A stretch of 62,000 nucleotides of DNA from Rhynchopus sp. YZ270_cl-10. Lineage: Eukaryota. Below, piece after piece: positions 27,909 through 54,967 of this stretch. The stretch lies in the NCBI GenBank assembly GCA_964035575.1, contig OZ037833.1, positions 2,914,001-2,976,000 of the forward strand, read 5' to 3'. Position 1 is the stretch's first letter, and every line of letters begins with the position of its first letter. Made by a program: the position numbers and the translations under genes. The notes under the pieces were generated by a model, which was given only the letters and a program-made list of their open reading frames with translations, was not told where the DNA came from and did not search any database.

Positions 27909-28161
27909 CCGCAAACCCGCAAACCCGCAAACCCGCAAACCCGCAAACCCGCAAACCCGCAAACCCGCAAACCCGCAAACCCGCAAACCCGCAAACCCGC
28001 AAACCCGCAAACCCGCAAACCCGCAAACCCGCAAACCCGCAAACCCGCAAACCCGCAAACCCGCAAACCCGCAAACCCGCAAACCCGCAAACCCGCAAAC
28101 CCGCAAACCCGCAAACCCGCAAACCCGCAAACCCGCAAACCCGCAAACCCGCAAACCCGCA
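27909..28161. repeat. Telomere-like 8-bp tandem repeat (AAACCCGC)n, about 31 copies
   Basis: Perfect tandem repeat; G-rich strand TTTGCGGG. Confidence 0.95.
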
Positions 28162-31978: not shown

Positions 31979-34900
31979 TCACCAAAATCCCAAAAATCAC
32001 GATTTTTTTTCAAAAATATTTTTTTCAAAAAAATCGATTTTAAAATATTGGTTTGGCTTGTGCGGGGACCTGAATCTGGGGCAACATACCCTGTGGGACA
32101 TACTGGGCCCGATGCAAGGCCGATTTTTCAAAAATATGGTTGCCCCGGTAGACGGTATGGCCCTGCAGGTCAGTGCATCGGGCCAAAAATCATGAAAAAA
32201 TCATGATTTTGGGGTCTGGCACCCCATGGGCACATATATCTGGGGGTGTGAAATATGCATGGAATCGACCGATTGGGGGTGTTATAGGTCCTGGGGGCCC
32301 ACATGGGCCATATTTCACGCTATTGGGTCACGGGAAAGTGATTTTGACATTTTTTCATCGATTTTAGCTGTGAGAACCCTTCAAAAACACTGATTTTGGG
32401 GTGTTTCTGAGACGGTACGCTATACCCAGGGTCATATTAGGTATTAGTCCGGTCGACTTTTTGAAAAAACGACCCCGCAATGGACTCAGGGGTGCCAGAT
32501 AGTGTATATGCACCAGAATGGATTCACGGGAAAAGTCAAAATTGGGTGTCAGATACATGCTGCCATAAGTGACGAATTTCAAAAGTTGAGATTTTTCGAA
32601 AATCAGGGTTCAGTACACGCTGTACCCAATCCTGGGGGCCAAAATTTTCAACTTTTTGAAAAAACGGGCGGTATATGGCCCTAAAGTGTCAAAATGAGTT
32701 AATTGCGACCTCGGACGGCCTCCGGAGATGAGTAGAAGTTTATTTACTGAAAAAAAAAGTCAAAACACAGGCGAAATCCCACCTTCCACAGGTACAGTCA
32801 AAACTATTATCCAGATCTCATGTTTTTTCAAAAAATTTTAAATTGTTTTTATGACTAACACCTCCGAAATTTTTCCTGATAAGATGGAATATGGTCCTGT
32901 CGTAGTATGCAGTGTGTTTGCAGGCAAAAATTTGCATTTTCTCGCCCCAGACATTTTTTTATACATAAAAGTGCATAAAGGGACCCCTGACCCCAAAATC
33001 CGGGTTCCAGCTTTTTGAAGGGGTCACCCTACAGGCCACCTCAAAAAGTTGGCCCGTAGGGCCAACTTTTTGAAAAAACGGGGTTGCGATGTGTCCTGGG
33101 GGCCCGAAGGGCCCCCAGGACACATCGCTGGGAAAAAAATATTAGGTTTTTGGGGGTCTATATAGGGTTGCTGTGGGGGTCACATGGCCGAAAAATGGCC
33201 ATTTTTGGCCTATTTTTGGCCATTTTTTTAAGGTAAAAAATCCACTTTTTTTTTGTACATCCCCTTGCCCCCGGTAAAATTTACCAAACATATGGCCCTG
33301 TTGGACATACTGGGCCCATGAGTCGGTCGCTGGATCACCAAACTAGTTGCCCTATTTGCTAAAATCATGTTTTCAGGGTCAAAAATAGGGTGTTTTTTAG
33401 GGTCAAAAATAGGGTGTTTTTCAGGGGTATGTTAACCACGTATGTGTCTTAGGGACCAAATTTTCCAGGAATGTGAACCAATCGGGTCGCAATGGGTCCA
33501 GGGGGCCCGGAGGGCCCCCATGCAGGGAAAATTTGCAACAATCCTGGGCAATGCTGGGGGCCGATAGGGTGTGCCTATACACGTGTTTTTACGTGTTTTT
33601 GGGCACTTTTCAGGATTTTCGAAAATTTTTGCAACACCAAAATCAAAAATTTCGGTCTAGGAGGCCCATATCTGGAAAAAATCGATATTCCAATGGCCTC
33701 ATTGGGACATATTGGGCCCAGGACCCTATTTTCAGGTCCCAGGAAAAGCCAAAACAATAAAAAAAATAGCTCAGGCGACCCCCAAAAATAGGCGAAAAAC
33801 AGCCATTTTTAGGGTGTTTTTTAGGGGTATTTTTACACACACAAATTGTTTACCATAGCACACCCCCAGGCTGCCTCAAAATTTTATCTTTATTTGATTT
33901 TTCCAACCCACATAGGGGTATTGGAGGCACAACTTTCACCAAGCCTGGGGAATTCGGCACTGCACACACACAACTGAAAAAGGCAAAAATCACCTGTTTT
34001 TCAAGGTGTCGCAGGGTAAATGTTGTTCCTTAAAAACCAAATTTTTTCTAAAAAATCGGCCCTGCGGGTGAAAAAACGACACTATGGGGGGTATTCCAGG
34101 GTGTGGGGGCCCCAAAAATCCGGTTTAAGACCACGAGAGGGTCCGAATACACACCTGAGAAGGTCCCGGGGAGTAAAAAAATGGCCATTTTTGGGGGGTC
34201 AAAATCTCACTTTTTGGGGGGATGTTTGTATACCCAGTACCGACCCACTAGCTGGGATGCCCAACTTTTCGCGAATATGGGGGCCCGTAGGGCCCCCGGG
34301 GCCCAGGGGGCCCAAAATATCGTGTTGCAGATGCCAGGAGAACATGTTTCAATATTTTGGATACATTTTTCCATAGGGTCATTTTCAAAAGCACTGATTT
34401 TAGGGGTATTGAGCGAGGTACCCATACCCATGGGTTATCCTATATATTAGTTTTCACTCGGATGTGAAAAAACGATGTCGCAATGGATTCAGGGGGCCCA
34501 AATAGGGTATATGGCCCAGGAAATTTTCAAAAAGTTGACCCAACCAGGTATACAGGCATACAAGCCGGTAGGTCAACAGATAGGGTGTTTTCCGCACCCA
34601 AAATATGGGGTCATGACCATGTGGGTCAGACCTGAATTGATAAATGTTTCGCACAGGTTTTCGCGAATACCCCCTCTATTCCGAATGCGCTACAAGAGTT
34701 TTAAATTTTTGGCTATTTAGATTCACTTTTAAAAACAAAATGGGTCTCCAGAACACACATGAGGTTCACATGTACCTCTACAGAAACCTTGGTTTTGGTC
34801 GGATTTTGAGGCCAATTTTTGGGTTCCCACCAATTTCCTAGGGTATACTGGGATATTGCCCGTGTGTCCAAAAGTGATTTTTGGGGCCTTAGGACCCCGG

Positions 34901-35641
34901 AGAATCCATTTAACGGTCGTTTTTGCACCGGAAAGACCTATCTAGTACCCAAAAATCGAATTTTCATATTTTTGAAAAAGTGACCAAAAATCGACTTTTT
35001 TTGGTAACATTGTATGGCATAAATTATTCTACATAATGTGTGATGCTTGAATAAAAACTTACGACCCCATAATGTACTCGGAACTCACCCATGTAATTGT
35101 TGAGAAAAAAAAACTTTCCGAAAAAATGAAATTTCAACCCGAATATGCACATTTGGGTCATTTTACGGCTATGTAGGTCATTTTGTATGTGTTTTTCGAT
35201 TATATAGGTGATTAGGATATGTGTGATGCTCAGATTAAATCGTAAGACCCCGCAATTGACTCAAATGTGCCCAAAAACCCTATATACCCAAGATTATTAA
35301 CTTTTCCAGCATATTGGACATCCTTAGGTATGGTTATAAGCCATGATACGGCTATTGCTGGAAAAATAGCCATAAATTGTGGTTGGTATTGATTTCAGAA
35401 ATTATGTGATGCTTAGATCATGCCATAGACGCTTTTAATGGATTCATATGAGCTCATACTACCCATATACCCCTTCAGAAGCCCCTTTTGACTCTTATGA
35501 ATATCCTTATATAGGCTTCCACTTGTGCAGAACCTTCTCAGTGTACAAGATGTTAGGTACAAAAAAACCATCATATTTTTTACACTACTGGCATGCTTCC
35601 CAGGACACGTCTGTACTCAGAACGTTGTAGAGAAAAAAGGC

Positions 35642-35753
35642 AACCAACGATTTCTAAAGCTACAGTTTCTGTACTTCATTGGTATGGAAGCATGAAGATT
35701 ACTCTTCTCACACAACTTTGTCAAAACATGGCCAGTTTCGAAAGAGACTGGCC
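35642..35753 (+). ncRNA. SL RNA: Spliced-leader RNA gene 1
   Basis: AACCAACGATTTCTAAAGCTACAGTTTCTGTACTTCATTG|GTATG, Sm-like AACTTTG, 3' hairpin, T-tract. Confidence 0.95.
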
Positions 35754-36075
35754 TTTTTTACGTTAGCATGATCGTCTTGTGCACAAGAAGCAAACCCAAA
35801 AACACACACGATTCACACATGACATAACACACAAGTGCTTACTGCACCCCATTTTTATATCGCCTGCAAAACCATATTTGTGACACTTGTTCCCCTTCAG
35901 AAGCCACTGTTGACTCTGTCGAATATCCTTCTGTAGGATCACACTTAAGGATATTTTTATGTAGAACCTTCACAGTGACCAAGATGTCAGGTACGAAAAA
36001 GCAACCGTATTATAGACATTGGCAGAAGGCTTCCCAGAACAAGTGGGTACCTAGAACATTGTAGAGAAAAAGGGC

Positions 36076-36187
36076 AACCAACGATTTCTAAAGCTACAGT
36101 TTCTGTACTTCATTGGTATGGAAGCATGAAGATTATATTCTTCACACAACTTTGTCAAAACATGGCCAGTTTCGAAAGAGACTGGCC
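36076..36187 (+). ncRNA. SL RNA: Spliced-leader RNA gene 2
   Basis: Same exon and intron structure. Confidence 0.95.
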
Positions 36188-36494
36188 TTTTTTACGTTAA
36201 CATCACCTTGTGCAAACCCAAAAAACACACATGATTCCCATGTTCTTCGAATATTTTGGTGATTAGGATATGTGTAATGCTCAGATTAAATTGTACGACC
36301 ACGCAATTGACTCAAATGAGCCCAAATATCCCGTATTCCCAAGATTTTTGGACTTTCGAGCACATTGGGCATCCTTAGGTATGTTTATAAGCCACTCTAC
36401 GGCTATGTTAGAAAAAAAACCCACCATAATAATGATACATATGGCATGATTCCCAGAACATGTTGGCACTTAGAACATTGTAGAGAAAAAGGGC

Positions 36495-36606
36495 AACCAA
36501 CGATTTCTAAAGCTACAGTTTCTGTACTTCATTGGTATGGAAGCATGAAGATTATTCTTCTCACACAACTTTGTCAAAACATGGCCAGTTTCGAAAGAGA
36601 CTGGCC
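36495..36606 (+). ncRNA. SL RNA: Spliced-leader RNA gene 3
   Basis: Same exon and intron structure. Confidence 0.95.
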
Positions 36607-36690
36607 TTTTTTACGTTAACACGATCGTCTTGTGCACAAGAAGCAAAAAAACCCACACAACAACAGCAGAAGTTTAGAACCACATTCAGA

Positions 36691-36726
36691 CCCTGACCCA
36701 ACTCCAACAAGGGGCCCCTGTCTTGT
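36691..36726 (+). promoter_or_regulatory. Class-A upstream element at -59 of U6 (CCCTGACCCA..CCAACAAG....CCCTGTCTTGT)
   Basis: Recurs at 37280, 37991, 40445 and 54916(-) at about -59/-60 from RNA starts. Confidence 0.8.
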
Positions 36727-36749
36727 CAACCACCTTGTGCATATATACT

Positions 36750-36854
36750 GGACCCCAGAAATGGGACATCCGTTAAAATTGGATCGATACAGAGAAGATT
36801 AGCATGGTCCCTGTGCAAGGATGACACGCATTAATCGAGAAAGTATCAACTTTT
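36750..36854 (+). ncRNA. U6: U6 snRNA
   Basis: ACAGAGAAGATTAGCATGG...CAAGGATGACACGCA core, terminal T-run. Confidence 0.97.
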
Positions 36855-37073
36855 TTTTTGTCCCCCGGATCACACGTATTTTTTACACTGGTGTCTTCTT
36901 CATGCTTCCCAGACCAACACATATGTGCAGACATACCCATCACCCACAGGTGGCAAGTGGCAGGCTGCAGTAACCCATTGAAATATTGGTTTCAAAAAAC
37001 GACCATATGGTTTATGCTACTGGCATGCTTCCCTGAGCACATACATGTCGAAAGCTGTGTAGAGAAAAAGAGC

Positions 37074-37185
37074 AACCAACGATTTCTAAAGCTACAGTTT
37101 CTGTACTTCATTGGTATGGAAGCATGAAGATTACTCTTCTCACACAACTTTGTCAAAACATGGCCGGTTTCGAAAGAGACTGGCC
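37074..37185 (+). ncRNA. SL RNA: Spliced-leader RNA gene 4
   Basis: Same exon and intron structure. Confidence 0.95.
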
Positions 37186-37340
37186 TTTTTTACGTTAGCA
37201 TGATTGTCTTTGTGTGTCTTTGTGCAAAGCAAAAAAAAAACACACACAAGAAGTGAGGATCTTCAAAACCACGTTTTTGACCTGACCCACCTCCAACTAG
37301 ACAACCCTGTCTTGTATTCCGACAATATGGTATCTATTGA

Positions 37341-37655
37341 GCCGGGATGTGTTGGCTGCATCCTGAAACCCCTAGCTTCTGGGGGGGCAAGCTTCTCCAG
37401 AACTGGGCACTCTTTGAGGTGGACCAAAGGCACCTTCAACTTCTGTGTTGATGTGTTGTCCGTGTTAGTCTACTGTCCTGTTTGCGGCCTTGGTGTAAAC
37501 CAGGGCAACAATCAGAGTGAAATGGGGTGAACCGGGCCAGGCTGGTCTCACAGAGCAGCTCATAACTCCTGCAGTGGACAGTTCAAGGATCGCAGCACAG
37601 AGCAGAGTGAGGGTGTTTCCAACTCAATGGCTTGAACTGGAGAAGCGTTTCTTTT
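37341..37655 (+). ncRNA. 7SL: 7SL (SRP) RNA
   Basis: GCCGGG start, helix 6 with GTAA loop, helix 8 GCCAGG..AGCAG, closing GCTTCTCCAG/CTGGAGAAGC, T6 terminator. Confidence 0.88.
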
Positions 37656-37815
37656 TTACATTTTTCCATGTGAACATTGTTTCCACATCACCATACACAT
37701 GTGTTGTTGATACACCCCACCACGTTGCCCAGACCATTCCTACCCACATTATTCACCACAAGTGGCATGTTTACCAGTACATGTTGGTGCTTAGAGCAAT
37801 GTTAAGAAAAAGGGC

Positions 37816-37928
37816 AACCAACGATTTCTAAAGCTACAGTTTCTGTACTTCATTGGTATGGAAGCATGAAGATTATATTCTTCTCACACAACTTTGTCAA
37901 ACATGGCCAGCCTCGAAAGAGACTGGCC
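37816..37928 (+). ncRNA. SL RNA: Spliced-leader RNA gene 5 (variant intron)
   Basis: Identical exon, slightly diverged intron. Confidence 0.93.
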
Positions 37929-38049
37929 TTTTTTACGTCACCATGAGAAAAAACATTCACACATATGATGCATGTACAAAGTGTGTGTCACCCTGACCCA
38001 CCTCCAACAAGACAACCCTGTCTTGTTTTCCCATACTCTCCCTATGTTT

Positions 38050-38374
38050 GGGTGCTAAGTTAGTGTGCTACTTCGAAACCAAACAACTCGTTCAGCAACA
38101 GCTAAAACTTGAAAAGACCTTTCTATTTAAGAAAATTCTTTACAATTTTTATGATGCGGTCCTGCTGTTGGGCCTGATATGGCCCAAGGCGGAACTACTT
38201 TCATATGATGTAAATCCCGTACGTTCGTACAGAATATTACCCATGATGATTATTCTTACATTAGCGTGTAACACTAATTCTGACTGCGTTCTATTTCACA
38301 CTTCAAATATTAGAACTGGATGTGGGGCTGCCAGTTTACTGGTGGTCCCGATCCAGCACACAACGCAAGCACCC
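38050..38374 (+). ncRNA. Unidentified ~325-nt structured RNA ('RNA X'), copy 1
   Basis: Class-A element at -59, terminal helix GGGTGCT/AGCACCC, T6, covarying stems with the paralog at 54528-54857. Confidence 0.75.
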
Positions 38375-38490
38375 TTTTTTATATTTTCCCACCCAGCACC
38401 CCCCCTGTGTCTGTGTTGTTGCCTAAGCATCGCCTTTTACAGGCTTCCTTGCAGGGAGTGTTCGGTCAAGTGATAGTGATGAAGAAGGAC

Positions 38491-38556
38491 AGGGGCGAGT
38501 TTTCTCGTGAAATGCTTTGAAGCCTCTGACATTGAGAGGCTCGCTCCGACCTCTGT
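38491..38556 (+). ncRNA. Unidentified ~65-nt structured small RNA
   Basis: CTTCC element at -47, GGGGCGAG/CTCGCTCC closing stem, TGTTTTT end like neighbouring snRNAs. Confidence 0.5.
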
Positions 38557-38636
38557 TTTTAATAACCCACATCACAGTGGTAACCACTGTGTATGTATGG
38601 TATGTATGGTATGTTTGTTTTTGTTTTGTTAAAAAA

Positions 38637-38826
38637 GAGGGTATGCCACTCCTGGATGTTGTGCAGCTCCAGGGCAACATGTGTGAACGGACCAGGTTGC
38701 CCTGGCGACCCGTCACCCCAATGAGAAATTGCGTTAATATCATCAGTGCACAAGGCACTGTATCAGATATTAAGCTGATAAGAACAGATAATACACTTGA
38801 TCTTAGCCAAAAGGCCGAGAAGGTAT
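38637..38826 (-). ncRNA. U2: U2 snRNA
   Basis: ATACCTTCTCGGCCTTTTGGCTAAGATCAAGTGTATTATCTGTTCTTATCAG on the minus strand; ~190 nt. Confidence 0.97.
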
Positions 38827-38859
38827 GACTTCTTTTTAGTCCATACCGAATTCGACACC

Positions 38860-38877
38860 CATGTACAGGGAAGCATG
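38860..38877 (-). promoter_or_regulatory. Class-B upstream element (ATGCTTCCCTG) at -47 of U2
   Basis: Same motif at -46/-47 of the SL genes, U3, U4, U5 and about -50 of U1. Confidence 0.75.
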
Positions 38878-38979
38878 ATTATGATCAATATTACTAGGAA
38901 ACAACAAGGCAAGCAGATTACACACCCATGTCACAGGGAAGTAAGTGAAGGTGATGATCAATCTTATTAGTAAAAACAA

Positions 38980-39121
38980 GGCCGCCGAAGCAGCTACACA
39001 AATTGCCAATGTGGCAACGCCGAAGCGGCCCATGGCGGGAATTGGGTAGTTTTCAACCAGCAATCTCTCCACAGCGTCCCTATTTGGTCATTGCTTATGG
39101 AATTATCCCGAGCGCAAGAAT
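38980..39121 (-). ncRNA. U4: U4 snRNA
   Basis: 5' ATTCTTGCGC complementary to U6 stem II, k-turn stem, TGCTGGTTGAAAACT, Sm site AATTTGTG. Confidence 0.92.
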
Positions 39122-39281
39122 ACCTCCTTTTCTCCCAGTCGTGTCACAAAGCTATGTCCACAGGGAAGTGTGTTGGGGTGGTAACATATAGACACCACGT
39201 AAAGTTAACACACCAAAACTACCACCGCCAATGTGCCTCCCTATAGACATCTGTGCAGCCGATAGGTGGAACAAACAAGGG

Positions 39282-39493
39282 CAAGACTGTACTCTACACA
39301 GGATCTGTTTTTGAGTGCATTCGTGTTGAAGATTGTTTTCTTCGGCACAAGACCAAAGCTGGATGATGACATAGGTTGGGCATGTGCAGCATGAGCACTT
39401 GCGATGATTGTCACATACTTCTTGTATTGTTTTGTCTCTCCCCTGTATGGCGCAGGGAAGAGTACCAGGCACAGCCCTTCCACTTACAGCTTG
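39282..39493 (+). ncRNA. U3: U3 snoRNA
   Basis: AAGACTGTACTCT..GGATC (GAC/A'/A boxes), GATGA boxes, terminal AAGCTG/CAGCTT stem; box D atypical. Confidence 0.8.
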
Positions 39494-39642
39494 TTTTTAA
39501 GAAAAACCTCAAAAAAGGCTTCACATTACTTTTTTCACCTTCAAGGACATCTTGATCAATCAAGAAGTTACCACACTATCCTCGCTCTCAACATGCTTCC
39601 ATGTGTAGCAAAGTGCACACAGCAATAGAACAAAACAGAGCC

Positions 39643-39756
39643 ATATCACGGTTCTTGCCCATATCGAACTCATCTTTCGCCTTTTACTAAAGATGACCGT
39701 GGGTAAGAGCCACTATGTGAAAGCATAATTTTTGAAGGGGCCTTTGTGTCTCATCT
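39643..39756 (+). ncRNA. U5: U5 snRNA
   Basis: Invariant loop I GCCTTTTAC on a long stem, Sm site AATTTTTG. Confidence 0.93.
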
Positions 39757-39833
39757 GTTTTTAAGTCTTGACAACCACTACGCTTCCCTGAAGGTGTTGG
39801 AGTTTCGCATGTTGTTAAACTCAGCTAGAGGTT

Positions 39834-39990
39834 ACATACCTTACTGGTGTCTGACCTGATCAACAAGGGCGTCGACACACCAGTGGCCCTTGCATTGCAC
39901 TGCGCAGGGGATACTGGTGGCACTAGCTTCGGCTGGCTTGCACAGTGAAATTTTTGACAGCGGCGGTGCTGTGCTTTGCACAAACCCGCC
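39834..39990 (+). ncRNA. U1: U1 snRNA
   Basis: 5' ACATACCT, SL1 loop GATCAACAAG, SL2 loop ATTGCAC, Sm site AATTTTTG, SL4. Confidence 0.92.
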
Positions 39991-40279
39991 TTTTTAAACA
40001 AACAAACAAACCAAAACAAATGTGATCACACAAACCATCATGTTACCCAGTAAACCCAGTAAACCCAGCACACTGGTCTAGAGGGATCGACCACTGAGTG
40101 GTGACCTGTGAGCACACAGGCACCTGCTCCGATGCAGTAGTGCAGCGCACTAAGTGCTGTGCTAAGGACTGGCCAAACTTGTTAAACCTGCTGACCCACA
40201 AACCGGTTTTCACAACCGAAGCAAAAACAAGCTCAGAAATAAAAAGCTCTTCAAAGGTTTTCGAACCTGACTCAGTATT

Positions 40280-40398
40280 GGATTCGGCCATACTCTGGTG
40301 AATGCACCTCATCCCGCCTGATTTGAGAAGTTAAGCACCAGCAGGCCTGGATAGTACTGGCGTGGGTGACCAGCTGGGAAGTCCGGGTGCTTGAATCC
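40280..40398 (+). rRNA. 5S: 5S rRNA
   Basis: 119 nt, GGATTC/GAATCC terminal helix, A-box AGTTAAGC, C-box region, T-run. Confidence 0.97.
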
Positions 40399-40515
40399 TT
40401 TTTGCTTTTCTTCCGTGTTGGTGTGTGGTTTTAGGACATCCAGACCCTGACCCACCTCCAACAAGACAACCCTGTCTTGTATCCCTGTGTTTGTTGCACT
40501 ATCCAGAGAGCAGAA

Positions 40516-40910
40516 ATGAGGGGAGACTACACCACCGACGGTGCTTCAGCCTACAGGAGCATGCTGGAATGTGAATGCTGCATGACAGCATTCACAATTT
40601 CACCTTTGGTGAGATGGAGATGAGCGCAAAGGTGCAAAAATGCACAACAAAAACTGAGGAAGAGGCATCCATACTCCCCAGAAGGGACGTGCGCACCTGC
40701 AGCCAAAAATTCTCCTGTGCTTAATATCATGCGCGCTGGGGATGCCGAAATAGCTAAACTGTTGCAAGAAGTGGGACTAATTCCCAGGCAGTTGCCCTGT
40801 ACAACATGCAAGTCCACAATGCCAGAAACACTGTACTGGACACCAAGATACTCCAAGAAGATCGCAAACTGGCCTTATTTTAGGTGAAATGACCTAATGC
40901 AGAGTGCAGC
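40516..40910 (+). pseudogene. Possible decayed Merlin/IS1595-like transposase fragments
   Basis: YTTDGASAYRSML and LLQEVGLIPRQLPCTTCKSTM...YFR* in short broken frames. Confidence 0.35.
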
Positions 40911-41034
40911 GGAACAGGGGAGACAAATAAAGTTTCCTGTACCATGCAACACCCAAGACCTTTTGCACAAGTGAAGCAAAAACAAGCTCAGAAATATAAA
41001 GCTCTTCAAAGGTTTTCCACCCAGACCCATTATT

Positions 41035-41236: not shown

Positions 41237-41308
41237 GGGTATATAGCTCAGTGGTAGAGCATTCGGCTGCAGTCCGAACGGTCCCTGGTTCGAACCCGGG
41301 TGTGCCCT
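41237..41308 (+). tRNA. tRNA-Cys(GCA)
   Basis: Cloverleaf; loop CT GCA GT. Confidence 0.95.
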
Positions 41309-41409
41309 CTCTTTTTGTTTCAAGACCAGATTTTCTCTTGAGTGTTACTTCTCCCTTTTTGGTTTTGAATTCCATCCCCACCTTGTAAAGATTCGTTTAA
41401 GAAATGTAA

Positions 41410-41482
41410 GGGGGTTTAGCTCAAATGGTAGAGCGCTCGCTCAGCATGCGAGAGGTAGAGGGATCGATACCCTCAATCTCCA
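41410..41482 (+). tRNA. tRNA-Ala(AGC), C33
   Basis: G3:U70; loop TC AGC AT. Confidence 0.95.
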
Positions 41483-41573
41483 AACATTTTTTGGCTTGGA
41501 AACACTGTTGTGATATTTCCAGATCTCGATTCTTTTTGGTACCAAAGAAAAAGAAGGAAGCGACAGAATTGTA

Positions 41574-41645
41574 TCTCCTATGGTGTAGTGGTTAGCACTC
41601 GAGACTCTGAATCTCGCGACCGCGGTTCGAATCCGCGTAGGAGAA
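41574..41645 (+). tRNA. tRNA-Gln(CTG)
   Basis: Loop CT CTG AA. Confidence 0.95.
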
Positions 41646-41738
41646 CTTTCCTTTTTCTCCGTTTCGTCCCTTGTTATTCTCCTCTGTGACTGGTTGAAAC
41701 GCATTCCCACTTCCATATTCTTGTTGGCTTTTATTGAA

Positions 41739-41820
41739 GGCGAGATGGCCGAGTGGTCTAAGGCGCCAGGTTAAGGCCCTGGTCCCTTCGGGGGCGTGGG
41801 TTCAAACCCCACTCTCGTCA
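41739..41820 (+). tRNA. tRNA-Leu(AAG)
   Basis: Loop TT AAG GC, long variable arm. Confidence 0.95.
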
Positions 41821-41909
41821 CTTGTTATTCTTTTTCATTTTCATTTTCAATCTATCCCTTTTGTTTTGTTTTCAAGATTGTGCAAAACACAAAAAGCACA
41901 CTTGTCAGG

Positions 41910-41982
41910 TCCTCCTTGGCGCAGTCGGTAGCGCGTCAGGCTGTTAACCTGCAGGTCGTTGGTTCGAACCCAACAGGAGGAG
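41910..41982 (+). tRNA. tRNA-Asn(GTT)
   Basis: Loop CT GTT AA. Confidence 0.95.
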
Positions 41983-42041
41983 ACTTTTTTCCCTTCTCAA
42001 ACCATTTTCTGTTCTTTGCAAAAGTCATAAAAAACTGGGAA

Positions 42042-43119
42042 GGCGAGATGGCCGAGCGGTCTAAGGCGCCAGGTTTAGGGCCAGTCGGGCGCACAGCGCA
42101 GACCCCATTATGGGCGCACAGCACACCCCCTCATTATGGGCGCACAGCGCACATGTGTGCTGTGCGCCCATAATGAGGGGGTGTGCTGTGCGCCCATAAT
42201 GGGGTCTGCGCTGTGCGCCCATAATAGGGAGGTGTGCTGTGCGCCCATAACGGAGAGCCTGTTCTGTGCGCCCATAATGGACTGGTGTGCTGTGCGCCAA
42301 TAATGGGGGGGGGTACCCTTTGAGCCATACTGGAGACATGTGATATGTGATAGACACTTAACTGGTGGGTGGGTGCGGGTGCACGGGAACCTACAGGTTC
42401 TAGGTTGCGTTATCTGGCTGGTGTGGTTGTGCGGGTGTGCGGGGTTCGGGCAACGTTATCCGGCTGGTGTGGTGGTGCGGGTTTGCGGGGTTCGGCACAC
42501 GTTATCTGGTTCGTGTGGTTAAAAAGCTGGCTGGTGGGTGCGGGTGCGCGGGAACCTGCTGGTTCGAGGTTGCGTTATCCGGCTGGTGGTTGTGCGGGTT
42601 TGCGGGTTGACGGGTGCGCGGGTTTGCGGTCCCTAGCTGGTTCGTGTGGTTGTGCGGGTGCGCGGGGTTCGGGCAACGTTATCCGGCTGGTGTGGTTGTG
42701 CGGGTTTGCGGGGTTCGGGCAACGTTATCTGGTTCGTGTGGTCAATAAGCTGGCTGGTGGGTGCGGGTGCGCGGGAACCTGCTGGTTCTAGGTTGCGTTA
42801 TCTGGCTGGTGGGTGCGGGTGCTCGGGACCTACTAGTTCTAGGTTGCCTAAGCCGGCTGGTGTGTTCTGTGCGCCCATAATGGGGGGGGTGTGCTGTGCG
42901 CCCATATCGGAGGGCCTGTTCTGTGCGCCCATAATGAGGAGGTGTGCTGTGCGCCCATAATGGGGTCTGCGCTGTGCGCCCATATTGGGGGGGTGTGCTG
43001 TGCGCCCATAATGAGGGGGTGTGCTGTGCGCCCATAATGGGGTCTGCGCTGTGCGCCCGACATACCAGGTTTAGGCCCTGGTCTCTTCGGAGGCGTGGGT
43101 TCAAACCCCACTCTCGTCA
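42042..43119 (+). tRNA. tRNA-Leu(TAG) split by a ~1-kb insertion in the anticodon loop
   Basis: 5' half 42042-42079 and 3' half 43076-43119 rejoin to a perfect cloverleaf. Confidence 0.88.
42079..43066. mobile_element. Non-autonomous TIR element (Merlin-like MITE), 988 bp
   Basis: 8-bp TSD AGGTTTAG (42071-42078, 43067-43074); TIRs GG...GTCGGGCGCACAGC; subterminal CTGTGCGCCCATAAT repeats. Confidence 0.88.
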
Positions 43120-43183
43120 CGTTATTACCATTTTTCCGCAGAAAACCCACCTCTTGTGGAAAACAGTTCCGGTCATTATTGTA

Positions 43184-43256
43184 GCAGCTATCGTCTAGTG
43201 GTTAGGACGCTCGCCTCACACGCGAGAGATCGTCGGTTCAATCCCGACTAGCTGTA
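43184..43256 (+). tRNA. tRNA-Val(CAC)
   Basis: Loop CT CAC AC. Confidence 0.95.
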
Positions 43257-43346
43257 ATTTCTTTTTGAACTTTCCTTCACATTTTCGTTCAATGCAACGA
43301 TCGAAAAGATGTCCCCATGCAGATAATAGTTTTGCCTACTATCAGA

Positions 43347-43418
43347 TCCGCTGTAGTATAGTGGTTAGAACAGCCGGCTCTCACCCGGCAGACCGGGGTT
43401 CAATTCCCCGCAGCGGAA
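43347..43418 (+). tRNA. tRNA-Glu(CTC)
   Basis: Loop CT CTC AC. Confidence 0.95.
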
Positions 43419-43512
43419 AATACCTTTTTTTAGACCAAGTTTTGGAGAGAAGAATTTCTGACTTTTGAATATTAACGCCATCATGTAAATCTGGATGAAG
43501 AAAATAATCAGT

Positions 43513-43584
43513 GGCTTAGTGGTCTAGTGGCATGATTCTCGCTTCGGGTGCGAGAGGTCCAGGGTTCGATTCCCTGCTGAGCCC
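43513..43584 (+). tRNA. tRNA-Pro(CGG)
   Basis: Loop TT CGG GT. Confidence 0.95.
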
Positions 43585-43798
43585 CTCTTTTTATTTAGGT
43601 AGTTTCTTGCTTGGGAATTGTTTAGAAAAATTATTTCCACATCTTTTCGACCACCAAAATCCCAAGATGAAGAAGTTTGGAAAAGTGCATTTTTGTGAAA
43701 GTATTTTGCCATATCTTTGTTGTCACCAAAATCCCAAGATGGTGAGAGAATCTTGAAAAATCATTTTCCATATTTTCACTTCCCAGTGAAAAAGAGAA

Positions 43799-43871
43799 TA
43801 CCCATGGTGGGGATCGAACCCACAATCTTTCGCTTAGGAAGCGAACGCCTTATCCATTGGGCTACACGGGC
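43799..43871 (-). tRNA. tRNA-Arg(CCT)
   Basis: Loop TT CCT AA. Confidence 0.95.
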
Positions 43872-43977
43872 CTAATAGTTTTACCTTCTTTCCTTTTCTC
43901 TGGGGTGGTCAAATTTAGGACAAGAGACTTTTCTGCATGACCACCCCACAATGATTCTTTGGTTTAAATGAATGTGA

Positions 43978-44050
43978 GCCTCCCTAGCTCAGTCGGTAGA
44001 GCGCAAGGCCCTTAACCTTGTGGTCGCGGGTTCGAGCCCCGCGGGAGGTG
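43978..44050 (+). tRNA. tRNA-Lys(CTT), C33
   Basis: Loop CC CTT AA. Confidence 0.95.
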
Positions 44051-44369
44051 CTTTTCTTTTTGAATGTTCACGATTTTGCAGGTTTCTGAGATTTTGAGGC
44101 AAATGAAAACCAAAAAATATTTCCTCCACTTGATCTCAGTTCTGTTTCGTTGGCAAGTTGAGAGTGGAATTTGGGTGAAAATATGTGTTTTCCGAACCAA
44201 CACAGGACTCCCACCGACCGGTGTAGGTTTTGCGTTCAACCAGGTGTGAACTGCTTCCACTCGCGAAAAGTGCCAGACCCTTTTGCTGGGGATAGCACGT
44301 TTCAGCCCCACAACTTATCTCCTTTCTGGGCATGTCCAGTGTGCTCAGCTGCCGCTTCTTGGCGACTCA

Positions 44370-44759
44370 CCAGTACAGAATGGTGGAATCCAGCACAGAA
44401 TGGAATGGCTGGGAAATCCTTAGCAATCCATAATTCAGATGGAAAAACTCCTGACCTGGCTATTGAATTTTCGGATCATTTTCTCAGTCACAATGCAAGC
44501 ACAGAATGGAAACCAAAACCAAGCACAGAATGGAACACGGCTATAAGACTCCAGCCATTCCATTCTGTGCTGGTTTTTCGTTTCCATTCTGTGCTTGCAT
44601 TGTGACTGAGAAAATGATCTGAAAATTCAATACCCGGGTCAGGAGTTTTTTTTTCCACTCCTAACAAATCCTTACAGTAAGCCTATAAGTCTCCAGCCAT
44701 TCCATTCTGTGCTGGTTTTTGGAGCCCATTCTGTGAGCACTCGCTCGGGCCTGTACTGG
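44370..44759. repeat. Foldback palindrome built from CACAGAATGG / CCATTCTGTG units (MITE-like)
   Basis: About 44443-44535 is inverted at 44558-44650; ends CCAGTACAG / CTGTACTGG. Confidence 0.75.
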
Positions 44760-44868
44760 AGTATAGCGGCCAGGCCATCTCCCTTCTGCGTTCCTGCCTG
44801 TCACATCCAGTGCTCAGTTGCTGCTTCTTCAGCACAACCGCATCACATCACATCACCAAAAAATAGAA

Positions 44869-44940
44869 AGGCAACTGGGGGGATCGAACCCCCGACCCTT
44901 GGTTTACAAGACCAATGCTCTGCCACTGAGCTAAATCGCC
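44869..44940 (-). tRNA. tRNA-Thr(TGT)
   Basis: Loop CT TGT AA. Confidence 0.95.
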
Positions 44941-45022
44941 GCTGATTAAGATGCTTTTGCTGTTTCTCCTGCGAAGAAGTTTTTCAAGACAACACAGAAA
45001 GGAAAGTGTGTAAAAAAAGAAA

Positions 45023-45093
45023 TGACCCTAGACGGAATCGAACCGCCGTTGATGGATTTGGAATCCATAGTGCTACCGCTACACCATAGGGCC
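45023..45093 (-). tRNA. tRNA-Trp(CCA) with a Gln-like body
   Basis: Loop TT CCA AA. Confidence 0.9.
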
Positions 45094-45178
45094 CATGATT
45101 TAGGGCTTCAATGCGTTTAGCATGAAGGTGGAAATTTTGCTGAAAATCCCACACAAAGGAAAAAGACACACAAAAAAG

Positions 45179-45251
45179 TGCGAGGTGCCAGGATCGAACT
45201 GACGACCTTAGGATTATGGGACCTACGCGCTCCCGACTGCGCCAACCTCGC
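45179..45251 (-). tRNA. Elongator tRNA-Met(CAT), C33
   Basis: Loop CC CAT AA, U31.U39. Confidence 0.93.
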
Positions 45252-45375
45252 CTTGATATTATCGTATCATTAAGAAATACATGGGGTGCAAATTTCTACA
45301 GGTTTGTGTGGCAAAAAAATTTTTTTGAGCCAAAAAATTTTATGGGCTTCTGTGAAAACAATGACAGTTGTAGAA

Positions 45376-45459
45376 CCTCTCGTAGCTCAATTGGTAGAGC
45401 GCTCGACTGTAGAATACTCGGTTATCGAGCGGTCGCTGGTTCGATTCCGGCCGAGAGGA
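45376..45459 (+). tRNA. tRNA-Tyr(GTA) with an 11-nt intron (45413-45423)
   Basis: CT GTA G|AATACTCGGTT|A. Confidence 0.95.
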
Positions 45460-45536
45460 TTTTTTTCATTTTCGTGTTCCAGGTTATATTCTTCAAACAG
45501 ATGACTGCCTAAAAACAAAGAACGGTGAGAATTACA

Positions 45537-45618
45537 GCAGTCGTATCCAAGTGGTTACGGAGGTGGACTAGAAATCCATTGGGCTCTGCCCGCGCAGGTT
45601 CAAGTCCTGCCGACTGCG
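45537..45618 (+). tRNA. tRNA-Ser(AGA)
   Basis: Loop CT AGA AA. Confidence 0.95.
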
Positions 45619-45716
45619 ATTCATTTTTTGTTCACAAATTTTCGTGCATTTTCGTCGTTTCTGTGCTCATTTTAGACCATTTTGATGCGCGAAAATAAAT
45701 CAGAGTGAAGATTGTA

Positions 45717-45788
45717 TCCTCGGTAGTATAGAGGTCAGTATTTCCGCCTGTCACGCGGAAGACCCGGGTTCAATTCCCGGCCGGGGAA
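45717..45788 (+). tRNA. tRNA-Asp(GTC)
   Basis: Loop CT GTC AC. Confidence 0.95.
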
Positions 45789-45850
45789 TTCTTTTTTGTA
45801 CAGGGCTCCCACTCATTGTTTCGTTTCTTTTCTGATGAAAATCAAATCAG

Positions 45851-45923
45851 GCCCCGTTGGCGCAATGGATAGCGCGTTGGACTTCGAATCCAAAGGTTGC
45901 GGGTTCGAGTCCCGCACGGGGTT
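45851..45923 (+). tRNA. tRNA-Arg(TCG)
   Basis: Loop CT TCG AA. Confidence 0.95.
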
Positions 45924-46194
45924 AACTTTTTGAACATTGTTTTTTTTGAACTTTTTTGAAAACACAAAAAAGTGAGGTTGGTGTCAAGTGAAATCACAGT
46001 GGAACAACAGATACAAATTTGGGTCCAGTGGGAAGGGGTCTCCCAGGAATTTTGGATTTTTTGGCAGTCAACCCATCCAGAAGAACCTTAAAAAATCTTG
46101 GGAAAAACTTGAAAACTGGAAATTCTTTGAAAAGCTGACATTTCAGAATTTTTTTCTGAACATGAAAATTTTACTTCCTCCTAAAAAAAAGAAC

Positions 46195-46266
46195 TGCACT
46201 TACCGGGAGTCGAACCCGGGCCGCTCGCTTGGAAGGCGAGAATACTAACCGTTATACCATAAGTGC
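46195..46266 (-). tRNA. tRNA-Gly(TCC)
   Basis: Loop CT TCC AA. Confidence 0.95.
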
Positions 46267-46355
46267 TGTTACTTTCATGCAAAGTGTTTTCTTTGTGGGG
46301 GGCAATTTCAAAATAAAAAAAATTTGAAATTGTTCAAATTGCCCAAAAAAAGAAG

Positions 46356-46427
46356 CAACCGTGGCAGGACTCGAACCTGCAACCGCCTGATCCGTGGTCA
46401 GGCGCTCTTCCATTGAGCCACACGGTC
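46356..46427 (-). tRNA. tRNA-Arg(ACG), C33
   Basis: Loop CC ACG GA. Confidence 0.95.
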
Positions 46428-46514
46428 CATGTCTTTAGGCAATAGTATTTTTTATGTGGCCTGCATATTTTTGGAGTTGGAAAAAATGAAAATGGTTGAT
46501 TGCACAGCTAAAAA

Positions 46515-46586
46515 AGCGGTTACCGAGAATTGAACTCGGGTCTCCCGTGCCACAAACGGGTGTTCTAACCACTAAACCATAACCGC
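46515..46586 (-). tRNA. tRNA-His(GTG)
   Basis: Loop TT GTG GC; U73, no encoded G-1. Confidence 0.95.
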
Positions 46587-46702
46587 TTGAATATTCCCAC
46601 TTATTGGGATCTCAGAAAGGGTTTTATTTCCTGGGATATTGTGAAATATTTTTCAAACATGCAACGAGCGGCAACTCGAGCACAATTTCGACTAATATCG
46701 TA

Positions 46703-46773
46703 GCGTAATTGGTCTAGTGGTAGAATGGCCCCCCGCCACGGGGTCGGCCCGGGTTCGATTCCCGGATTACGCA
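46703..46773 (+). tRNA. tRNA-Gly(GCC), C33
   Basis: Loop CC GCC AC. Confidence 0.95.
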
Positions 46774-47126
46774 CTCTCTTTTTGCGTTTGGCAAAAGCAA
46801 AACAATATGTTTCGGACAGTTTCAGGTCGGTCACAAACTCGTTCAAAACGAAAAAGTGGAAATGATATGTACTCTTTCTTGCGTAAGGATTATTAGTAGA
46901 GAAAAAAATTTCTTGTCTGATGATACGGGTTTTTGCTCGACATAGTTTGCGAGTAAGTCAGTTCGGTCACAACTTCCATCACAATTGCAAAAAAAATTGG
47001 GACTACAACATGTTCATAAACCCAACCTGACTTACATGTTTATTTCTTCACAAAATTCCCAGTAAATAAACATGCACATCAGTATGGCCGGTGCGCTGGT
47101 CAGAGACATCACGTTTGCGGGCCAAC

Positions 47127-47545
47127 CCCTCTGTGCGCCCGATTAGGAACCCCCCTGTGCGCCCGATTAGCTTACCCCCCTGTGCGCCCGATTAGGGACC
47201 CCCCTGTGCGCCCGGTTAGCTTTACCCCCCTGTGCGCCCGATTAGGAATATCCCCCTGTGCGCCCGATTAGGAACCACTCTGTGCACCTACCTAGTCACT
47301 GTGACCAGGTGCCCCTACTAATATGCCTTACCAATATGGCCTGGGCTGTGGTATGTCGGGTGTACTACATGCTGGGACCTAAAGAGGAACCACATGCTGG
47401 AACACGGCTTTAAGCCCCCACCCATTTCAGCTGTGGTTCCTACTGTGCCCAGTCACTGTGACCAGGTGCCTGGTCAGATCTGACCAGGTACCCTTACTAA
47501 TATGCCTGACCAATATGGCCAGGGGTGGTATGTCGGGTGCACAAG
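47127..47545. mobile_element. Remnant of the same TIR family: CTGTGCGCCCGATTAG repeats and GGTATGTCGGG ends
   Basis: Motifs shared with 42079-43066. Confidence 0.6.
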
Positions 47546-47770
47546 GGAGTTTCACGATGGGTTATCTTATGCACAGGTACAGTGGATGTAGAAAACCCAC
47601 AAACCCATTGTGTGTGGGTTTTCTGGCATAGGACTGTATGGAAAGTGCACGGGTCCACCACAGTACAACCAGTCATGCACCAAGGGACACTGGCTGTTTT
47701 ATCACTTTTTGAACTTTTTTAGACACTGCCAAACCTTCTCCATAATCTGAGATCTTGGGAAACAAGATAA

Positions 47771-47842
47771 GCTCGCGTGGCGCAATGGAAGCGCGTCGGT
47801 TCCCGACGCCGGAGGTTGCGGGTTCGATCCCCGCCGCGAGTA
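47771..47842 (+). tRNA. tRNA-Arg(CCG), C33
   Basis: Loop TC CCG AC. Confidence 0.9.
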
Positions 47843-47979
47843 CTTTTTATTCATTCCAAAATATTTTTAGATTTCCTTCTTCTCAGAGATTTCTTGTCAC
47901 AAAACTTTGCCAAATTGAAAATTCAGAAATGCGAAAATATCAAAAAACAGCTCCGAAATTTGAAAGCAATCAAAAAGGA

Positions 47980-48051
47980 TTCCCCCTCCGGGGTTTGAAC
48001 CCGGGTCGCCTGGGTGAAAGCCAGGTATACTAACCACTGTACTAAAGGGGA
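47980..48051 (-). tRNA. tRNA-Glu(TTC)
   Basis: Loop CT TTC AC. Confidence 0.95.
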
Positions 48052-48149
48052 GGTGATACTTAGGCACAATCCAAAAAGGGTACTTTTGTGCAAGCTACAC
48101 GGAGTTTCAAACGAAAAAAAAAATTAAAAATGAAAATCCAAAAAGACAA

Positions 48150-48221
48150 GGGCTCGGCGGGGAATTGAACCCCGGACCTCTCGCACCCTAAGCGAGAATC
48201 ATGCCACTAGACCACCGAGCC
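48150..48221 (-). tRNA. tRNA-Pro(AGG)
   Basis: Loop TT AGG GT. Confidence 0.95.
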
Positions 48222-48335
48222 ACGAATTCTCTCGCATTCTCTTCGTAACGCGGCCATATGTTTCCATCATTCCTTGTGTGTGTTTTCGTTTTGAATAAGG
48301 TCCCCATGTAAATGCTGTCTTCGCTAACAATCAGA

Positions 48336-48408
48336 TCCTCCTTGGCGCAGTCGGTAGCGCGTCAGGCTGTTAACCTGCAGGTCGTTGGTTCGAACCCAAC
48401 AGGAGGAG
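48336..48408 (+). tRNA. tRNA-Asn(GTT), copy 2
   Basis: Identical to 41910-41982. Confidence 0.95.
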
Positions 48409-48664
48409 ATTTTTCATTTTTTTGAGTTTTTGACTCTATTTTTTAATTTTGAGCTAAAAATCCACATTGTGTGTCATCTTGATGTTGGAACTATTTTTCA
48501 GGATTTCCAAGGTTGTCCCACCAAAAAAACCAAACATCTTTGGATGCTGACATAACTTGAAGATTCTTGACCTGAAGATAAAACAGATTTTGTCAGGTTT
48601 TTTTATTGAGTTTGAAAAAGTTCAGAACAGAATGAAAAAAGGGATCGATGCAGTGTATAAAAAA

Positions 48665-48746
48665 CGCGAACGGCAAGGTTCGAACTTGCGCATGCAGAGC
48701 ACACTCGCTTAGCAGGCGAGCCCCGTAACCACTTGGGTACGTCCGC
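48665..48746 (-). tRNA. tRNA-Ser(GCT)
   Basis: Loop CT GCT AA. Confidence 0.95.
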
Positions 48747-48965
48747 TTAATTACCTGTCAGTACTTAGGACGAAGCTTGTACTTTGTTTAACGACACGTT
48801 AGTGATCACTTGCGTGGTCACCAAAAATCATCGCAATTGTGACCACCAAAAAAAATTTTTGGGCACGATTTCGCACGATGGCGGGCTCATTGCACGACGG
48901 CCGACACACCATGTTTTCTCACAAATAAAAAAAATCCAGAAAAATTCAGGTATCAATACAAAAAG

Positions 48966-49038
48966 CACCTCCCGCGGGGCTCGAACCCGCGACCACAAGG
49001 TTAAGGGCCTTGCGCTCTACCGACTGAGCTAGGGAGGC
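48966..49038 (-). tRNA. tRNA-Lys(CTT), copy 2, C33
   Basis: Identical to 43978-44050. Confidence 0.95.
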
Positions 49039-49140
49039 TCATATTAACTTAAATCAAAGAATCAACATGGGGTACTTGTGTGTACCTGCAGCCACCAAAT
49101 TTTCCATCGTTGTTGCGTGAACAAAAGGATCCGGATTATC

Positions 49141-49212
49141 TCTCCTATGGTGTAGTGGTTAGCACCCTGGACTTTGAATCCAGTAGCCGCGGTTCAAACC
49201 CGCGTGGGAGAA
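49141..49212 (+). tRNA. tRNA-Gln(TTG)
   Basis: Loop CT TTG AA. Confidence 0.95.
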
Positions 49213-49327
49213 CTTTTCTTTTTCCAAGTGTTTTCAATATTTTTTGGAGCTTTGTCACACACATCTTCAATCTTTGCATTTGATGGCAAAAACATAAATC
49301 ACAGAAATCAAACGAAAAGGTAAAGAA

Positions 49328-49409
49328 CGCTGACGGCAGGGTTCGAACCTGCGCGGGCAGAGCCCAGTGGATTTCAAGTCCACCTCCGTAACCACTTGGA
49401 TACGTCAGC
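49328..49409 (-). tRNA. tRNA-Ser(TGA)
   Basis: Loop CT TGA AA. Confidence 0.95.
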
Positions 49410-49486
49410 ATAGTTGAGGAAGTACAACGCCCCAGATCCTGAAAATGGGCACAAAAAAGAGAATCCAATCGATCCAAAAAAGTAGG

Positions 49487-49558
49487 CACCCGCCGTGGGG
49501 ATCGAACCCACGACCATTGGATTAAAAGTCCAACGCTCTACCGCTGAGCTAGGCGGGC
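49487..49558 (-). tRNA. tRNA-Lys(TTT)
   Basis: Loop CT TTT AA. Confidence 0.95.
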
Positions 49559-49673
49559 ATTCGTTTTAAAGGAAAGAGTCAATTTCAAGGCTTGTTCAGT
49601 TCTTGAAAAAAAACTGACAAAAAAGACGAACAGAACGTGCCCCAAGTACCTCTCCTTGAGGGACATTTATCAG

Positions 49674-49745
49674 GGGCGTTTAGCTCAGTGGTAGAGCGCC
49701 CGTTCTGCATACGGGAGGCCGAGGGTTCGAACCCCTCAATGTCCA
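49674..49745 (+). tRNA. tRNA-Ala(TGC), C33
   Basis: G3:U70; loop TC TGC AT. Confidence 0.95.
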
Positions 49746-49837
49746 TTTTTTTGCCATATTTTGTTGATTATTTTTTGGTTGGGCCAGTCAAACACACAAA
49801 AATATGAACTGACATCATTGTGCAGTGCCTGCGATGA

Positions 49838-50435
49838 GGATGTGTGTGATGGTCCAATTGGCGAGTCTGACCTCATAATGCGTTCAGGAACATCCAAATG
49901 ACCCATTTTCCCAACGTTTTCACATTTTTGAGCATTTTGCTATTACGCAATAGTGGTACAATAGGCATTTTACTGGGTCATTTTAACCAACTCTATCAGG
50001 ACACTTCTGATGCTCCAATTGGCGATTCTGACCTCATAATGGCTTCATGAGCAGCCGAATAACCCGTTTTCCCAATATTTTCACATTTTTGAACGTTTTG
50101 CCATTCGTGGAATGGTGGCACAAAAGTCATTTTAGTGGGTCATTTTCGCCAACTCGATCAGGGCACTTCTGGTGCTCCAATTTGCGGTTCTGACCTCATA
50201 ATGGATTCAAGAGCACCCAAATAACCCATTTTCCCAACGTTTTCACATTTTAGACTATTTTTGCTATTGCGGAATGGCAGTACAATAGGCAGTTTACTGG
50301 GTCATTTTCGCCAACTCGATCAGGATACTTCTGATGCTCTAATCACATCGTTTAACCTCATAATGCATTCAGGAGCACCCAAATAACCCATTTTCCCAAT
50401 GTTTTCGCATTTTTGACCACTTTGCTGTTGCAGAG
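49838..50435. repeat. Degenerate GATGCTCCAATT..GACCTCATAATG repeat array; related arrays near 29670-30370, 35040-35440, 53010-53590 and, inverted, 55440-56890
   Basis: Recurrent motif with roughly 120-165 bp period. Confidence 0.8.
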
Positions 50436-50603: not shown

Positions 50604-50683
50604 ATACTTTTTCTACTACTTTGACTTTGACCTGTTGTCAAAAAATGTTGGCCGTGTAAAAAATATGCATACCCTAAAACAAG

Positions 50684-54527: not shown

Positions 54528-54857
54528 GGGTGCTTGCGTTGTGTGCTGGATCGGGACCACCAGTAAACTGGCAATCCCACATCCAGTTCTAATATTTGAA
54601 GTGTGAAATAGAACGCAATCGGAAGATTAGTTTACACGAATGTAAGAATAATATCGTCATGGTAATATTCTGTACAGATTGTACGGGATTTACTATCATA
54701 TGAGAGTAGTCCGTCGCAGGCCACATCGGGCCCGCAACATGACCGGTCTTCACACAAAATTGTAAAAGAATTTTCCTTGGAAAAAATGTCTTTTTCAAGT
54801 TTTTGTTGTTGCTGAACGAGTTGTTTGGTTTCGAAGTAGCACACTAACTTAGCACCC
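54528..54857 (-). ncRNA. Unidentified ~330-nt structured RNA ('RNA X'), copy 2
   Basis: Diverged paralog of 38050-38374; class-A element at 54881-54916, again at -59. Confidence 0.75.
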
Positions 54858-54967
54858 AAACATGCAGCAAACATCGGAATACAAGACAGGGTCGTCTTGT
54901 TGGAGGTGGGTCAGGGTCTGGACATCCTCAAATGTGCACACCTAATACAACAGAAGAAAAGGAAAAA

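Follow-up and report, generated by a model that had tools for sequence, protein, structure and literature searches.

Vault RNAs (vtRNAs) are built on a plan of conserved ends around a variable centre (PMC7058938). Validated examples are few and, according to PMC7058938 and PMC9326685, come from some deuterostomes and the trypanosomatids. The T. brucei vtRNA was itself assigned on the basis of its structure and of short stretches in a bulged terminal helix (PMC9326685), and PMC12547018 reports that it co-purifies with MVP1. The protein TEP1 binds vtRNA via its TROVE domain and prefers the single-stranded central loop (PMC7916137). According to PMC12547018, TEP1 occurs in Diplonema, and diplonemids carry a pair of MVP paralogues.

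Here, two paralogous RNA genes found in a 62,000-nucleotide stretch of DNA (the window) are compared with these systems. They are read, with a probability of about 0.85, as vault RNA genes of a diplonemid-type euglenozoan whose centre was expanded to give RNAs of 325–330 nt. The RNA is probably not a new kind of molecule but an unusually long vault RNA.

Two gene copies and their predicted fold

The putative vault RNA copy 1 occupies positions 38050..38374 of the plus strand (325 nt) and copy 2 positions 54528..54857 of the minus strand (330 nt), in agreement with an earlier note made from the sequence. The near-invariant ends described there were also confirmed, as the copies agreed at 51/51 positions over the first 51 nt and at 88/91 over the last 91 nt. 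A pairwise comparison of the middle gave 152/194 identical positions, so that a variable centre between conserved ends fits the vtRNA plan. The identity amounted to 50/60 in the promoter region and to 96/218 and 97/216 (about 45%) in the outer flanks.

Both copies folded better than all 100 shuffles generated for each of them, with MFE z-scores of -7.30 (copy 1) and -7.65 (copy 2). The closing stem GGGUGCU/AGCACCC, proposed earlier, was present in the predicted folds of both copies, and so were the other stems quoted in the earlier note. Their description as covarying was weakly supported, since among 78 consensus pairs between the two copies three changed on both sides and seven on one, a level reached by 63 of 500 shuffles and therefore not significant. 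In a variant from sequencing run X20, seven of 10 substitutions fell in unpaired positions of the centroid fold, two kept a pair and one broke it (two broke pairs on the MFE fold), which may be taken as modest support for the predicted structure.

The 5′ strand of the bulged terminal helix (GGGUGCU-AA-GUU-A-GUGUGCU, backed by pairing probabilities) lies at 38050..38069 (+) and its 3′ strand, with a GCA(A) bulge, at 38356..38374 (+). This helix, predicted to pair the 5′ and 3′ ends, is invariant between the copies. Directly 3′ of it is the UACUUCGA motif (38069..38076, +), with UACUUC at nt 20, followed by CAAACAAC (38080..38087, +), which is predicted to be single-stranded; pairing probabilities predicted nt 21–40 to be mostly unpaired. 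The expanded variable central domain (38101..38283, +) forms several hairpins in the predicted fold and contains a T5 run at 38146–38150. It is followed by a near-invariant 3′ subdomain (38289..38357, +) consisting of a 6-bp stem with a 17-nt loop and then a long hairpin. The invariant 17-nt loop and the 3′ hairpin could form a second functional module absent from other vtRNAs, a suggestion that we hold tentatively and consider clearly short of an even chance.

Promoter elements, terminators and internal T-runs

The element CCTGACCC..CCCTGTCTTGT was found five times in the window: before U6, before 7SL, before both copies and as an orphan at 40446. At copy 1 the element (37992..38026, +) starts 58 nt ahead of the RNA, the same distance as at U6; that of copy 2 (54881..54915, -) lies downstream of a 5S rRNA gene. 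Measured from the first C of the element, the distance was 58 nt to U6 and both copies and 60 nt to the Rfam-defined 7SL start. The earlier note was right in placing the element upstream of both copies, and its spacing of 59 nt counts from one base earlier. The element is likely an external Pol III promoter.

Two upstream motif classes were seen in the region 35600–40000. The CCTGACCC..CCCTGTCTTGT class is located at -58 to -60 (U6, 7SL, both copies), and a second, CTTCCC-type class at -46 to -53 precedes six of seven SL genes as well as U1, U2, U4 and U5. The two classes likely correspond to Pol III and Pol II external promoters, respectively. The orphan element (region 40446–40965, +) is located between two 5S genes, in the same 5S-then-element order as at copy 2. 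The sequence after it folded no better than shuffles (z -1.14), gave no meaningful Rfam match and contains CGCAAAC, i.e., 7 nt of the CCCGCAAA repeat. This fifth element may be either an orphan promoter or the mark of a further RNA gene.

The claim that both RNAs end at a T-run holds for copy 1, which directly precedes a T6 run (38375..38380, +), the likely Pol III terminator; in copy 2, AA separates the RNA from T7. The caution expressed about internal T-runs proved justified, as copy 1 contains T5 (nt 97–101) and copy 2 contains T6 (nt 72–77) and two T4 runs. In length, the internal T5/T6 runs equal the 5S terminators of the window, and U6 and 7SL have no such runs. The genes bear Pol III signs, namely the U6/7SL-type element and the terminal T6/T7, yet carry T5/T6 within the gene.

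No tRNA-type B box was detected near the 3′ end of the copies. The nearest B-like match was CTTCGAAAC at nt 22 (one mismatch), and A-like matches with two mismatches were noted at nt 3 and 7. The window RNA has the U6/7SL-type upstream element in place of the composite promoter of internal A and B boxes that PMC7058938 describes for animal vtRNAs.

Terminal arms resemble trypanosome and human vault RNAs

The T. brucei vtRNA sequence was taken from Fig. S10 of PMC12547018 and compared with the window RNA by eye. With one inserted base, 16 of the first 24 nt were identical. The two RNAs have in common GGGYGC-AAG-N9-UACUUC with the same 9-nt spacing between AAG and UACUUC, the latter starting at nt 20 in the window RNA and at nt 19 in the T. 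brucei vtRNA. In the place of CAAACAAC, the trypanosome RNA has CAAACAGC, which gives the common motif CAAACA(G/A)C (CAAACARC, 7/8 identical). Of the last 11 nt, nine were alike in the T. brucei vtRNA and copy 1 (3′ CGCAA-N-CRCCC). Both RNAs have a bulged terminal helix, the fourth pair of which is C-G in T. brucei and U-A in the window RNA, with both sides changed. The AAG, CAAACA and GCAA features were picked after both sequences had been seen, and the match at the 5′ end is not independent of that at the 3′ end, since the two arms pair with each other.

Beyond the ends, the RNAs differ. The T. brucei vtRNA amplicon is 149 nt long and the L. braziliensis vtRNA about 190 nt (PMC9326685), compared with 325/330 nt here. 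PMC12547018 describes a single T. brucei gene, as opposed to two paralogues in the window. The centre of the window RNA is A/U-rich with multiple hairpins and has no visible likeness to the G/C-rich centre of the T. brucei RNA. The internal T5/T6 runs are a further difference from trypanosomatid vtRNAs.

In human vault RNAs, the terminal helix is followed by UACUUCG. According to PMC10087102, vtRNA1-1, 1-2 and 1-3 all start with GGG and have UACUUCG at nt 23. These three RNAs and the window RNA share the GGG start, UACUUC after the terminal helix, a variable centre and a U-run end; the human terminal helix contains an internal loop, like the bulged helix of the window RNA. In contrast, the window RNA is more than three times longer than the human vtRNAs and lacks their 3′ GUUCGAGAC B box.

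The likelihood of a chance match was assessed on 300,000 shuffles of copy 1. UACUUC starting at nt 17–25 occurred in 1,030 of them, and its combination with a GGG start, both features being taken from the human and trypanosome RNAs alone, in three. When the 3′ GCAA, a feature chosen afterwards, was added to GGG and UACUUC, a single shuffle matched. The two published T. brucei vtRNA primers were also placed on the RNA, whose ends had been defined independently: for the start, copy 1 scored within the top 0.43% of positions and copy 2 within the top 0.31%, and for the end the corresponding values were 0.32% and 1.6%. When the whole window was scanned blindly with both primers, the copies did not come first, as 133 and 1,834 positions scored as well. 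The failure of the blind scan and the success of the anchored test indicate that the likeness is short and visible only when anchored.

A short conserved terminal-arm sequence, the criterion by which the T. brucei vtRNA was assigned (PMC9326685), was found at both ends of the window RNA. Because its end motifs are shared with trypanosome and human vault RNAs, the RNA is likely a vault RNA and not a new kind. Weighing against the assignment are the lack of a Vault row in Rfam, the outcome of the blind primer scan, the greater length, the missing 3′ B box and the internal T5/T6 runs. The designation as an unknown housekeeping RNA, given in the earlier note, therefore gives way to this match of the terminal arms.

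Rfam and homologue searches

The window was scanned against Rfam at gathering scores, and scans at E ≤ 10 were performed for the region 37900–41000, copy 1, its first 60 nt and copy 2. The Vault family, which we take to be RF00006 (human vtRNAs), gave no row over the copies in any of these scans (E up to 10; gathering score for the window), and only weak unrelated rows, all far below gathering scores, were returned there. The Rfam check proposed earlier thus yielded no relevant match to either copy, in accordance with the view that the RNA does not belong to the spliceosomal RNAs, SRP, RNase P or MRP. The scan with the Vault model is a detection test and not part of the definition of the vtRNA family, for which variation of the central domain hampers homology search (PMC7058938).

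A degenerate pattern of the 5′ arm recovered both copies (2/2) in the window with 0 matches expected; it gives no independent test because it was built after both sequences had been seen. The same pattern matched 20 loci in metagenomes. None of the 20 had a closing NNCCC arm before a T-run and six had only loose wobble-pair closings, so they were rejected as homologues and are read as chance matches. The metagenome scan with this pattern thus provided no homologue from a third species.

An assignment to box C/D snoRNAs or Sm-class snRNAs was rejected as well, as terminal C/D boxes and an Sm site were not found: the copies have no Sm site, CUGA is missing from copy 2 and the C-like box is internal.

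Alternative identities

The stretch AAACCAAAC at nt 27–35 is 1.8 repeats long, invariant, predicted to be single-stranded and located just 3′ of the closing helix, as would suit a telomerase RNA (alone or doubling as a vault RNA) with a template for the 5-nt repeat TTTGG, the only repeat that it fits. In mammals, vault and telomerase RNAs are both ligands of TEP1 (PMC7916137). The stretch, weighed as a telomerase template in the earlier note, nevertheless overlaps the CAAACARC motif shared with the T. brucei vtRNA. The window contains no array of at least three TTTGG/CCAAA units, and the longest match of the RNA to CCCTAA or CCCGCAAA repeats does not exceed 5 nt. The lack of a CCCUAA template reported earlier was confirmed, and the longest matches to templates for TTAGGG, TTTAGGG, TTTGCGGG and ciliate-type repeats were 4–6 nt, in no case more than one unit. 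In T. brucei, telomerase RNA is a distinct Pol II transcript of about 900 nt (PMC9326685). A telomerase RNA is therefore considered very improbable, and the same slim chance is given to one TEP1-bound RNA acting as both vault and telomerase RNA, in which CAAACA would have been extended to the TTTGG template AAACCAAAC and the central gain of about 200 nt would supply TERT-binding domains. A dual RNA of this kind, if real, would link the two TEP1 RNAs evolutionarily.

The terminal helix alone cannot separate a vtRNA from a Y RNA, since Y RNAs also have a bulged 5′/3′ helix around a variable loop domain. Typical Y RNAs are much shorter than the window RNA. They resemble vtRNAs, are transcribed by Pol III and bind the other TROVE protein, Ro (PMC7916137), so that the window RNA could be imagined as a Y-RNA-like partner of a Ro60-type TROVE protein, of the same design and not a vault component. 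Against it, the motif matches are specific to vtRNAs, no Y RNA row appeared in the Rfam scans of the copies and trypanosomatids are described as lacking Ro and Y RNA in PMC9326685; this identity seems highly unlikely. A somewhat less slender chance, though still a small one, is left to a housekeeping RNA that is new and unrelated, or to an RNase P/MRP RNA that has diverged greatly, the likeness to vtRNAs being due to chance. It agrees with the lack of an Rfam Vault match and with most of the length having no counterpart in known vtRNAs, and the POP5 orthogroup of Diplonema (PMC10161547) means that a P/MRP RNA is expected somewhere. Chance, however, produced GGG and UACUUC at the offset in so few shuffles that it is a poor explanation. 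In P/MRP RNAs, the motifs CR-I and CR-V form P4 next to P1. No CR-V-like motif was found in the copies, the segment that separates the closing helix from the last hairpin offers no unpaired stretch for it, and the only CR-I-like match is part of a predicted stem.

Hints of expression

Four public sequencing runs chosen for holding the gene (three recorded as RNA, one guessed; depth 2–7.5) were mapped on the region 37700–38620. All six contigs from these runs fell within 38095–38374 and none of 20 bins outside the gene was covered. Contig ends at 38373 and 38374 were obtained in two studies; the contigs show neither the strand nor transcript ends. One of the six was copy-1-like, two carried copy-2 differences, two a third set of differences and one fell in the common part. 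Two contigs spanned the internal T5 of copy 1. The SL RNA gene within the mapped stretch had zero cover, hence there was no positive control for expression. The confinement of the contigs to the gene is a weak hint of expression; contigs cannot prove transcription. All or part of the window is contained in 20 public runs from 14 studies with many organism labels, nine of these runs having at least half of its words, and this spread suggests that the source organism is an associate of other organisms.

Genomic surroundings

The Rfam gathering scan revealed a dense cluster of small-RNA genes with U6, 7SL, U2, U4, U5 and four 5S genes, and U1 and U3 matched below gathering scores in the scan at E ≤ 10. 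The window contains seven SL RNA genes and 48 tRNA genes, 47 of which are grouped within 13 kb (41237–54420), mostly one per anticodon. The U3 snoRNA gene (39283–39754, +; E 5e-7, below the gathering score) is located directly upstream of U5. U1 and U2 cover their full Rfam models; the T. brucei U1 is 73 nt long. U2 (38636–38826, -) reads GUAUUA, the usual form being GUAGUA, and U1 (39832–39990, +) reads ACAUACCU near its 5′ end, which, judged from the sequence, would be complementary to the splice site GUAUG in the SL RNA. The 39-nt SL consensus used for comparison is presumably that of Diplonema. The 40-nt SL exon has three differences from this one euglenozoan consensus (PMC3795323), and the SL RNA points to a diplonemid-type euglenozoan as the source.

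The segments 57701–62000 and 31985–36284 form a near-exact duplication that includes SL RNA genes (4,291/4,300 identical over the aligned part), and the whole small-RNA cluster may be tandemly repeated. Positions 27909–28161 hold 31.6 perfect copies of the 8-nt unit CCCGCAAA (TTTGCGGG on the other strand), immediately preceded by a fragment in which part of the retroelement at about 8400 recurs. It is the sole telomere-like array in the window and has the appearance of a telomere-type array at an internal site, built from an unusual unit. Two long ORFs (5131–15966, + and 17213–24286, +) encode reverse transcriptase domains, the second also with an OTU-like protease match, and are non-LTR retroelements adjoining the SL RNA cluster. 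The open frame 1–2214 (+) has three close relatives, 92–95% identical, which carry PF03629, PF17963 and PF13385; its named matches are distant, bacterial or unassigned. It is possibly a carbohydrate esterase gained from bacteria.

Proposed mode of action

In the proposed mechanism, Pol III would transcribe the copies from the U6/7SL-type external element and terminate at the T-run that follows the closing stem, having passed the internal T5/T6 in at least a fraction of cases. By analogy with known vtRNAs, the TROVE domain of TEP1 would then recognise the bulged terminal helix together with the single-stranded stretch UACUUC..CAAACA. TEP1 could stabilise the RNA and bring a fraction of it into the MVP vault, as has been described in T. 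brucei. Finally, the RNP might take part in spliced-leader mRNA metabolism, again by analogy with T. brucei; this is the weakest step, and its chances are put slightly below even.

Pairing of vtRNA with the SL 5′ splice site has been proposed (bioRxiv 10.64898/2026.10.18.760011). When three conserved segments of the window RNA were examined for pairing with 10 small RNAs from the window, not one of the 30 duplexes outperformed shuffles, the best one (8%) being formed by the 5′ segment and SL RNA. Tests aimed specifically at the 5′ splice site and the 5′ end of the SL RNA gave values of 0.23–0.83, none of which beat shuffles. Plain shuffles with no accessibility term were used in these tests, and within the limits of such a simple duplex test the result counts against a conserved vtRNA:SL pairing. 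Because no pairing to SL RNA or snRNAs was found, an action in spliced-leader metabolism via proteins would be likelier than one by base pairing.

Meaning for vault RNA biology

As far as the accessible literature on vault RNA in diplonemids and Euglenozoa goes, no diplonemid vtRNA has been described, with a mention in Kolev et al. 2019 being possible. The longest known vtRNA, as stated in PMC9326685, is the L. braziliensis RNA; the window RNA is about 135 nt longer, 1.7 times that stated maximum. The likely novelty of the locus thus lies in a vtRNA from a new lineage, of record length, present in two copies and with an external promoter.

The upper limit of known vtRNA sizes would move from about 190 nt to 330 nt. 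Trans-splicing occurs in diplonemids, one species of which is amenable to genetics (PMC12621601), so that an ancestral link between vtRNA and SL trans-splicing can be tested in this group. A third, distant example of a vtRNA would leave the bulged terminal helix and UACUUC as the conserved core, joined within Euglenozoa by CAAACARC and the 3′ GCAA bulge. Such a narrowed core would show which residues should be mutated in order to map the TEP1 site and would serve as a search key for protist vtRNAs where Rfam fails.
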